Source: an uncultured Desulfurococcaceae archaeon
Lineage (GTDB): Archaea > Thermoproteota > Thermoprotei_A > Sulfolobales > NBVN01
Direction of reading: 5' to 3'
Assembly: GCA_964655125.1 (NCBI GenBank)
Contig: CAZZLT010000046.1
Location: 14,480-78,479, forward strand
Length of the DNA: 64,000 bases
Position 1 is the first letter of the stretch; every line of letters begins with the position of its first letter. The notes under the pieces were generated by a model. That model was not told the origin of the DNA. It was given only the letters and a program-made list of their open reading frames with translations, and ran no database searches. Both the position numbers and the translations under genes were made by a program. Shown here piece after piece: positions 44,257 through 45,536 of the stretch.

Positions 44257-45428
44257 TCACCTCACTGATATCTCAGGAGGTATTTTTAAGTCTTTATGCT
44301 TACAATCATATTCACTACTCACTATAGATTTTATAATCCTCACTAACTCATCATAACCTATGTTAAGTCCTTGATCACCTAACTCTTTAACCCTAGCTAA
44401 CACTTTACTAACTATATCATCACTAGGTTCAACCCCTAACTGCTTTAATACGTACATTACCGCATGCTTCCCACTATGTTTACCGAGTACGATCCTCCTC
44501 TTAGCACCTACTACTGAGGGGTCTATAGGTTCGTATGTTAGTGGATTAGTCAGTACCCCATGTACATGTATTCCAGACTCGTGTGAGAACGCATTAATAC
44601 CTACTATTGGTTTATTAGGATTAATAGGTATTCTAAATAGTTCAGAGACTAATATTGCAGTACTAAGTATGTGTTCAAACCTTATGTTAGTCTTAAGCCC
44701 GAGTACGAATGCTATTGAAGTAACTACCTCCTCTAATGCTGCATTACCAGCCCTCTCACCAACTCCTAATACAGTAACATGTACTTGATCTGCTCCGGCC
44801 TCAATAGCTGTAACACTATTAGCTACAGCCATACCGAAATCGTTATGACAGTGAACACTTAATATGTAATTACCTCTAACGTTATCTCTAATATGTTTGA
44901 CTAAGCCATACATCCTTGTAGGTATCATAACACCTACTGTATCAGCTATATCAACTCTATCAGCTCCAGCATTAACTACTTCCTGGAATACCCTGGTCAG
45001 GAATACTAAATCACTTCTAGTAGAGTCCTCAGCACTGAACTCTATAGTTAGTCCGTGTGATTTAGCGTACTCGATAGCATCTACAGCCTTCTCTACAACC
45101 TCCTCACGACTCATACGTAATTTATACTTCATATGGATATCCGATGTAGCTATAAACAGATGTATAGCTTTACAATCAGCATCTATAACCCTATCAATAT
45201 CATCCTTAGTAGTCCTTGCTAAGGCTATAACTTCAGAACTCCTTACCTCCTTACTAATCATCTTAACAGCTAAGAACTCCCCACTACTCGTTATAGGGAA
45301 TCCAGCCTCTATAGAATCAACACCTAACTCCTCTAAAGCTAAAGCAATCCTTAACTTATCCTCAGGTCTTAAAGCAACACCAGGTGTTTGTTCACCGTCT
45401 CTTAATGTAGTATCTAAGATACGTACAT
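44257..45428 (-). CDS. leuA: 2-Isopropylmalate/citramalate/homocitrate synthase family enzyme (short form, no LeuA regulatory domain). Start unresolved: the frame is open to 45528.
   Basis: The in-frame upstream region encodes [44 protein letters not shown] (catalytic DRE-TIM N-terminus), which is absent from the listed ORF starting at 45261. Also HCHNDFGMAVAN and HESGIH. No in-frame ATG/GTG/TTG between 45261 and 45528. Confidence 0.9.
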
Positions 45429-45536
45429 GTTTTGGATTTAAATTACGTTTTAAACTGAATTCGGGACTAGCAATAGGGATCCCGAAGAAATAGGAGGTTG
45501 GGGAATAAAAACTTTTCCGTTTAAGTCTTCAGTGAA

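Follow-up and report, generated by a model that had tools for sequence, protein, structure and literature searches.

A short-form 2-isopropylmalate/citramalate synthase gene with a putative conserved AUU start in an uncultured Desulfurococcaceae archaeon

Introduction

Conserved AUU start codons are known from bacteria, with infC and pcnB of Escherichia coli as examples, and the logic of the infC AUU is autoregulation by IF3. In archaea, it is likewise already known that NCBI translates the ATT at the 5' end of the 2-isopropylmalate synthase (IPMS) gene of Vulcanisaeta as Met. The following sections concentrate on a leuA/cimA-type synthase gene found in a 64-kb window, i.e. the whole stretch of 64,000 nucleotides (nt) that was analysed, of an uncultured Desulfurococcaceae archaeon (contig CAZZLT010000046.1). 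This gene harbors no ATG, GTG, or TTG in frame ahead of its catalytic motif, and judged from its sequence and that of its relatives it is probably intact and initiated at a non-canonical AUH codon within 45480-45472.

In full-text searches, incomplete in coverage, neither a conserved AUU start nor leader open reading frames (ORFs) were found to have been described for archaeal leuA/cimA. The phylum-wide conservation of AUU-GCU, the scale of the resulting misannotation, and the link with overlapping mini-ORFs appear to be undescribed. To our knowledge, the stringency of start codon choice (aIF1) in vivo has been little explored in archaea.

The open frame upstream of Met 45261

The minus-strand frame of the ORF listed at 44257..45261 is open upstream to 45528, and this upstream stretch ends in ...EFLAVK-M at Met 45261. 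The features that delimit the gene are the following:

44257..45474, minus strand: proposed full coding sequence, 405 codons plus stop, beginning at ATT (based on domain matches, the open frame, and the conserved ATH-GCT)
45261..45259, minus strand: first canonical in-frame ATG, an internal Met at which automatic calls start (334 amino acids, aa)
45531..45529, minus strand: upstream in-frame stop TGA, read from the sequence

A sequence-only reading of the window had noted that the N-terminus with the catalytic LRDGEQ precedes the first canonical start, and had seen no ATG, GTG, or TTG in frame back to the TGA. Both observations are confirmed: the LRDGEQ codons occupy 45405..45388 (minus strand), and none of the three start codons occurs in frame between 45528 and 45262. 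LRDGEQ becomes part of the product only if translation begins upstream of Met 45261; a product from this Met would therefore be devoid of the first barrel strands and of the substrate/metal motif. Gene finders admit only ATG, GTG, and TTG and therefore default to Met 45261, losing the catalytic motif. Such start-less stretches are rare, since a six-frame scan of the window found only four ORFs of at least 100 aa with at least 25 such upstream codons: the synthase gene, thrC, the transketolase-N gene, and one antisense artefact. A 198-aa ORF antisense to the synthase gene (44897..45493, plus strand) is no real gene, since it only reflects an open antisense frame, and a similar case is seen at 6887..7336.

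The encoded enzyme belongs, as far as sequence can tell, to the short-form 2-isopropylmalate/citramalate/homocitrate synthase family without LeuA-dimer domain. A Pfam search returned PF00682 (E=9.9e-88, residues 2-259) and PF22617 (E=5.3e-27), and TIGR02090 (LEU1_arch) scored 517.4 bits, above its cut-off of 484.75. The HMGL-like TIM barrel followed by the HCS_D2 subdomain is present, and LRDGEQ and SVHCHNDFG align with the catalytic/metal-binding motifs of the solved IPMS structures 3rmj and 6e1j. The same Pfam search gave no match to the C-terminal LeuA_dimer domain (PF08502), and the protein ends about 45 residues past HCS_D2. The Sulfolobus-type IPMS equivalog NF041069 scored 513.6 bits, below the curated cut-off of 600, and the enzyme is therefore placed at the family level only. 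The gene is flanked by leuC-leuD on one side and by ilvB-ilvN-ilvC on the other, a context that fits an IPMS as well as a citramalate synthase, which are not decidable from sequence.

The lack of a canonical start and the automatic annotation at 334 aa could also be taken as signs of a decaying gene that yields only an inactive product from Met 45261, as the sequence-only reading had considered, or no product at all. The codons upstream of this Met speak against such decay. In a comparison of the window with a 90%-identical relative (L003), the 54 codons (17-71 when counting begins at ATT) that extend from VRILD as far as Met 45261 showed eight synonymous and two non-synonymous changes, with eight of the ten at third positions. 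These codons are evidently under purifying selection, and the ratio of eight to two therefore excludes a truncated or decaying gene. In addition, the arrangement is retained down to about 50% identity, its indels are all multiples of three, and the gene is located in an intact leuCD-ilvBNC cluster. Decay is thus a highly improbable explanation.

45428..45426, minus strand: out-of-frame ATG with a lineage-private T where relatives have C (ACG in L001-L005, ACA in L006)

This ATG reads MYVS* and an in-frame GTA begins at its G, both as the sequence-only reading had described. That reading had further proposed the ATG as the actual start, either because a G is missing from the sequence (true ATGG) or because the single G is used a second time, with TTTAAAA as the promoter box of a leaderless mRNA. 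The geometry is present in the window, and in the thrC and transketolase-N genes, too, an in-frame codon begins at the G of an ATG; the product would presumably resemble the N-terminus of methanogen CimA. Against this stands that all six nearest independent contigs read ACG or ACA at this position and that L008 and L011 read TAC GTA; the relative L007 also has an ATG there (TAT GTA). These six contigs (L001-L006) derive from five Joint Genome Institute (JGI) metagenomes and one Logan assembly, show 89-96% aa identity, and are equally devoid of a canonical start at the 5' end. The ATG is hence a private substitution.

A missing G found no support in the assemblies either. Over 45200..45600, the contigs assembled from four independent public runs (depth 25-29) differ at no more than four single-nucleotide polymorphisms (45495, 45496, 45501, and 45502), all confined to one run (X3); no indel is present, and all four assemblies of the window's lineage show ATG-T without an extra G. 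Together with ACG/ACA in the six related contigs, this rules out a sequencing or assembly error. As for the proposed promoter, TTTAAAA does exist at 45454..45448, but it encodes S-L-K in frame, is absent from relatives of 74-79% identity, and its conservation ends with the species group. Upstream of the ATG, the frame remains conserved and free of stops for another 16 codons, and a conserved promoter-like element and an equally conserved candidate start sit 46-90 nt upstream of the ATG. No frameshift at ATG 45428, programmed or due to sequencing, emerged from the nearest relatives, where the ATG is not conserved, or from the four assemblies, which lack an indel. A start at this ATG is, in consequence of these points, the least credible of the explanations considered, with almost no probability left to it.

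A conserved ATT-GCT hexamer at the 5' end

The elements relevant for the start lie further upstream:

45474..45472, minus strand: ATT, candidate initiation codon (near-cognate AUU), followed by GCT at 45471..45469
45480..45478, minus strand: ATC two codons upstream of ATT, an alternative near-cognate start or part of the Shine-Dalgarno (SD)-like GGGAUC
45483..45481, minus strand: GGG run 6 nt upstream of ATT, SD-like (GG-GAUC versus GGUGAUC) and predicted transcription start region
45516..45504, minus strand: element AAAAG-TTTTTATT, resembling a B recognition element (BRE) and TATA box, conserved in all clade-A relatives

About 170 related loci were read, taken from species-representative genomes and metagenomes. 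The sole feature common to this whole subfamily is an in-frame ATH-GCT located 13-25 codons upstream of DTTLRDGEQ; in the window, ATT-GCT (45474..45469) lies 20 codons upstream of the D of this motif. The block GGGATC-YST-ATT-GCT-A (45483..45468) is invariant in the relatives of 74-79% identity (L007, L008, L011, and L013), and the sequence upstream of the GGG varies in them, with 1-nt indels and stops at differing places. Carriers of the hexamer comprise the window's clade, a Desulfurococcaceae metagenome-assembled genome (L023), Ignisphaera (L014, L015, L096, and L099-L101), L102/L103, Vulcanisaeta-like lineages (L094, L095, L097, L098, L149, and L177), Caldivirga (L178), and about 55 Bathyarchaeia loci. 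Non-redundant counts are 66 for ATTGCT, four for ATCGCT, and two each for ATAGCT and ATCGTT; ATG is never found. As a separate matter, the block GGGATCNNTATTGCTA was considered as a repeated regulatory motif and rejected, as it is unique in the window and mismatched matches occur at chance level.

The hexamer is in the enzyme frame in 79 of 82 occurrences, at nine differing distances, and the changes in the length of the N-terminal extension must therefore all have been multiples of three. This extension (about 20 aa) is poorly conserved and begins M-A. Among the 76 non-redundant loci with an in-frame ATH-GCT open through to DTTLRDG, a canonical in-frame start is absent altogether in 38 and absent upstream of ATH in 46; five carry an in-frame stop immediately before ATH. 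The upstream canonical starts that do occur are dispersed over codon positions -1 to -44. The orthologues thus keep, at the 5' end of the conserved frame, an in-frame AUU without canonical alternative.

Lineages without an alternative start are the most telling in this respect. In the complete genome of Vulcanisaeta moutnovskia 768-28 (CP002529), the 5' end reads CTTAAATA, 22 nt, GGTGGGTTAG-ATT-GCT-CAG-GAG, with a TAG in frame, and the RefSeq protein WP_048056951.1 (MAQEDV..., 386 aa) has that ATT as its first codon. ADY01724.1 (347 aa), the entry first deposited in GenBank, is truncated. The corresponding sequences are GGTGGTCTAG-ATT-GCT in L094 and GGTGGTCTGG-ATT-GCT in Caldivirga, the latter with TGG where Vulcanisaeta and L094 have TAG. 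Since related lineages differ in TGG versus TAG, the position before ATT is therefore untranslated, and in these lineages ATT is, on the sequence, the only possible in-frame start. In L102/L103, codon -2 is ACC and the only upstream ATG lies beyond the predicted transcription start.

Promoter and ribosome-binding signals

The BRE/TATA-like element has the consensus AAAAG-TTTTTAT(A/T) in relatives and is located about 20 nt upstream of the GGGATC block. The 20-nt spacer downstream of the element is variable, including 1-nt indels. All four polymorphisms of run X3 fall within this spacer (TATA-like box to GGG run), in keeping with weak constraint on it. In six independent lineages, the TATA starts 35-40 nt upstream of ATT; these include L102 (ACC at -2), L094, and L097, in which codon -2 cannot serve as start. 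The T5 run of the element could in addition terminate the leuCD transcript.

In non-Bathyarchaeia lineages, GGG, GAGGG, or GGTGG precedes ATT by 6 nt, and in Bathyarchaeia a GGGG run is found 1 nt before it. In 21 genes of the window, an in-frame canonical start follows a GGTG at a distance of 4-8 nt, which is the normal ribosome-binding layout there. The GGG at 6 nt from ATT fits this arrangement; as the transcription start is predicted on the G-run itself, its use as an SD sequence is uncertain.

Searches of the leader for an Rfam element or riboswitch gave no match at the gathering threshold or at E<=1, and no tRNA was found near it. A hairpin (UCGGGAU/GUCCCGA, 45461..45485, minus strand) of 7 bp with AUUGCU in its 11-nt loop has a predicted energy of -17.2 kcal/mol, and the 86-nt region shows z=-2.8. 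A role of this hairpin in presenting the AUU was dismissed: it is not conserved, single-sequence folds differ, and RNAalifold found no consensus pair in 17 lineages. No feature pointed to a bulge-helix-bulge intron or to splicing as the source of an ATG, and an in-frame AUH accounts for the data.

Candidate initiation codons

On this basis, initiation at AUU 45474..45472 is the most likely case, at somewhat better than even odds. It is supposed that the mRNA begins at or beside GGG 45483..45481, driven by the BRE/TATA element, so that the leader (5'-GGGAUCCCUAUUGCU) would comprise only about 6-9 nt and start with the SD-like GGGAUC. The initiator tRNA would decode AUU, yielding a 405-aa enzyme that begins M-A-S-P-E-F. 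The AUU-GCU start is probably an ancient trait of the subfamily across Thermoproteota, maintained by selection, and the weak start may be retained for low or regulated expression.

Several points weigh against AUU initiation. In those systems that have been studied, AUU initiates poorly, and aIF1 of S. solfataricus is reported to discriminate against non-canonical starts (PMC8211752). The sampled loci are dominated by the about 55 related Bathyarchaeia. The third base of GCT is invariant, which the Ala codon alone does not explain, as any GCN encodes Ala. In Bathyarchaeia, an SD-like GTGAT and an ATG/GTG are located 7 nt upstream of ATT in another frame, and a plain AUU start leaves these unexplained. 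Ignisphaera and Ignicoccus have ATG/GTG exactly two codons upstream of I-A (M-x-I-A/V); position -2, ATC in the window, could therefore be the ancestral start, with I-A kept for other reasons. Finally, we infer from sequence the transcription start, the decoding of AUU by the initiator tRNA, and the reason for which a weak start is kept.

The position -2 leads directly to the second candidate, initiation at AUC 45480..45478 as the 5'-terminal or near-terminal codon of a leaderless mRNA. The product would be M-P-I-A-S-P-E-F (407 aa), and ATT-GCT would be kept for another reason. ATC is invariant in the window, L001-L013, L023, and L093, with a variable next codon (CCT, CGT, or TGT), and ATG/GTG occupies exactly this position in the six Ignisphaera loci. 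Many protein clusters have a canonical start at the AUC position (MSIAPT, MRIAPT, VCIAPT, and MLIVE), and the TATA spacing sets the predicted transcription start at -7/-6 from ATT, i.e. at the last G of GGG or the A of ATC. Yet -2 is not start-like in L102/L103 (ACC), in Vulcanisaeta-like lineages (GGT/GTC, then stop), and in Bathyarchaeia (TGG), all of which retain ATT-GCT; moreover, GGGATC is equally readable as SD-like GG-GAUC. We know of no precedent for leaderless initiation on AUC. An AUC start is considered unlikely, albeit the strongest competitor of AUU.

The invariant T of GCT brings in a different possibility, which involves the following ORF:

45473..45450, minus strand: +1-frame mini-ORF from the TTG within ATTGCT (TTG CTA GTC CCG AAT TCA GTT TAA), hypothetical in function

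Here, the sequence A-U-U-G would serve as a dual-frame start, read either as AUU (frame 0, followed by GCU for Ala) or as UUG (+1, followed by CUN for Leu and a dead-end mini-ORF of 4-10 codons). The first-arriving aminoacyl-tRNA would set the frame, so that Leu-tRNA plentiful relative to Ala-tRNA leads to the dead end and scarce Leu-tRNA to the enzyme, a leucine-sensing switch. The T of GCT, the middle base of the +1 Leu codon, is invariant in 72 of 75 loci from AT-rich and GC-rich genomes, and the second +1 codon is always CTT, CTA, or CTC (66 loci). The first base of the hexamer is always A and the third mostly T, which preserves both AUU and UUG, and the out-of-frame short ORF at thrC likewise retains a Thr codon (ACC/ACA). 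On the other hand, six to eight loci carry ATC or ATA and hence no UUG, the +1 peptide (3-17 codons) is otherwise unconserved and of a length that chance gives in AT-rich sequence, and the Leu codon is an automatic consequence of GCT. The switch is accordingly regarded as quite improbable. If true, it would place a leucine sensor, conserved across Thermoproteota, in the start codon of a leucine/isoleucine-pathway gene; thrC (short ORF M-x-Q-T-x-stop, overlapping with its stop a GUU/AUU/GUG start) and transketolase-N would then be variants, in which biosynthetic genes with weak non-canonical starts are fed by strong short ORFs.

Reinitiation at an in-frame TTA, ATA, or TTG overlapping the stop of the +1 mini-ORF was also considered. 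Starts have been called at that overlap point, namely ATA in L008 (NCBI) and TTG in L011 (automatic gene call). Reinitiation is disfavoured because the enzyme-frame changes between L007 and L013 upstream of that point are synonymous, and because Ignisphaera and Bathyarchaeia show synonymous third-position changes right after I-A.

Overlapping mini-ORFs in Bathyarchaeia, thrC, and transketolase-N

The Bathyarchaeia arrangement set against AUU initiation above, noted 20 nt upstream of ATT-GCT, consists of a conserved GTGAT, 4-6 nt, and (A/G)TG-GGG-T before ATT-GCT-TTA. It was seen in L039, L041-L044, L047, L048, L053, L060, L070-L072, L076, L079-L082, L090, L110, L116, and about 30 other loci. 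The ATG/GTG is one nt out of the enzyme frame (ATG-G-GGT-ATT-GCT), and its ORF ends after 7-11 codons. Substitutions such as GGT to GGA and ATT to ATC/ATA leave the enzyme sequence unchanged, yet alter the peptide read from the ATG. If one G after the ATG is skipped, GGT-ATT-GCT follows and yields M-G-I-A-L, the usual N-terminus of the family. The arrangement could thus represent an overlapping upstream ORF or a +1 shift at codon 2.

Two further biosynthetic genes of the window show a related layout. For thrC (224..1285, minus strand), no canonical in-frame start exists upstream of the zinc-ribbon N-terminus (5' end 1417..1480). Its 5' region consists of TATTTAAG, 20 nt, GGTGG, 5 nt (or GGTG, 6 nt), and an out-of-frame ATG (1440..1438) that opens M-F-Q-T-Y-stop. 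The TAG of this mini-ORF (1425..1423) overlaps by one base an in-frame GTT (1423..1421) located just before the first zinc-ribbon Cys. Relatives have ATT (L173), GTG (L174), or GTT (L176) at this position, and many thrC homologues are annotated from that codon (MCDKCG, MCTKCG, and VCDKCG). Conservation of RTG-NN-CCAAAC and of the small ORF's Thr codon extends down to 59% identity. Upstream of the thrC AGATG the sequence is non-coding, as shown by a 1-nt indel in a relative of 93% identity.

The transketolase-N gene (47516..48181, plus strand; 5' region 47367..47426) shows CTTATATA, 24 nt, GGTG (47399..47402), 6 nt, and ATG (47409..47411). This ATG is out of the enzyme frame, conserved in five lineages, and opens M-A-L-Q-N-stop; the TGA of the mini-ORF overlaps an in-frame CTG (47423..47425), where relatives have ATA or GTA. 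The enzyme frame lacks a canonical start for 41 codons, and its first ATG (47516) is already part of the GH.GGS.LS motif. In L007 and L008, which show a 1-nt indel versus the window, an in-frame TAA stands two codons ahead of the embedded transketolase-N ATG. Transketolase-N of cultured Sulfolobales begins M..(R/S)DG(I/T)PIS with a canonical ATG.

From their sequences, thrC and transketolase-N look like strongly initiated short ORFs coupled to weak non-canonical main starts. This suggests that unconventional initiation of biosynthetic genes is a lineage trait and not a peculiarity of a single gene, as is also hinted at by the occurrence of three biosynthetic genes without a canonical start in one 64-kb window.

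Annotation and implications

The effect on annotation extends well beyond the window. The three best database matches (P0001-P0003, 89-96% identity) are called at 333-334 aa without LRDGEQ. Of the 120 nearest protein clusters (P0001-P0120), about 29 are called from an internal Met without LRDGEQ, and arbitrary ATA/ATT codons serve as start in others; in all, such calls devoid of LRDGEQ make up roughly a quarter to a third. Public annotations of the gene are in disagreement, as seen in these clusters and in L008:2501, L023, and L177:301. JGI/Prodigal-type calls use an internal Met (MISKEV, MPGIAL, and MAIALRLE), NCBI uses ATT (Vulcanisaeta) or ATA (L008, L023), and TTG is the start chosen for L007 and L011 by automatic gene calling. 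For hot-spring and sediment archaea, the leucine/isoleucine pathway may thus be mis-scored in metabolic reconstructions.

AUU is kept from Sulfolobales-like lineages to Bathyarchaeia and is never replaced by ATG, though one transversion would suffice, which implies that weak or conditional initiation is selected. Natural variants of the site are available in the cultured Vulcanisaeta, Caldivirga, and Ignisphaera; these variants are AUG at -2, GUG at -3, and a stop ahead of AUU.

Comparison with known systems

The enzyme resembles TIGR02090 members, the Sulfolobus IPMS of NF041069, and CimA of M. jannaschii in its HMGL-like barrel plus HCS_D2, its LRDGEQ and HCHND motifs, and the absence of LeuA-dimer. 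Unlike those short forms, it carries the poorly conserved N-terminal extension described above, and it scores below the NF041069 cut-off.

A comparison with the leu/thr/ilv attenuators of bacteria applies to the dual-frame start only. Both have a codon for the end product Leu in a tiny 5' ORF; unlike in attenuators, there is no terminator/antiterminator, as the search for conserved RNA structure gave none, and the mini-ORF, which holds one Leu codon instead of a run, does not precede the main start but overlaps it.

The 2-IPMS of Vulcanisaeta (WP_048056951.1 of V. moutnovskia and WP_069807332.1 of V. thermophila; MAQE...) are orthologous short forms of about 71% identity. They share ATT-GCT and the layout of TATA, about 22 nt, G-rich box, 6 nt, and ATT, and the Vulcanisaeta gene is truncated also in JGI calls. 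The two differ in that Vulcanisaeta has an in-frame TAG before ATT and the box GGTGGG, whereas the frame of the window is open upstream (F-G-I-P), its box is GGGATC, and an additional ATC is present.

With respect to the bacterial AUU starts, the gene differs from infC in that it encodes a biosynthetic enzyme, belongs to an archaeon with aIF1/aIF1A/aIF2, and would have a very short leader. Its likeness to infC and pcnB is seen in a near-cognate AUU that appears to be retained by selection over AUG, implying weak or factor-sensitive initiation.

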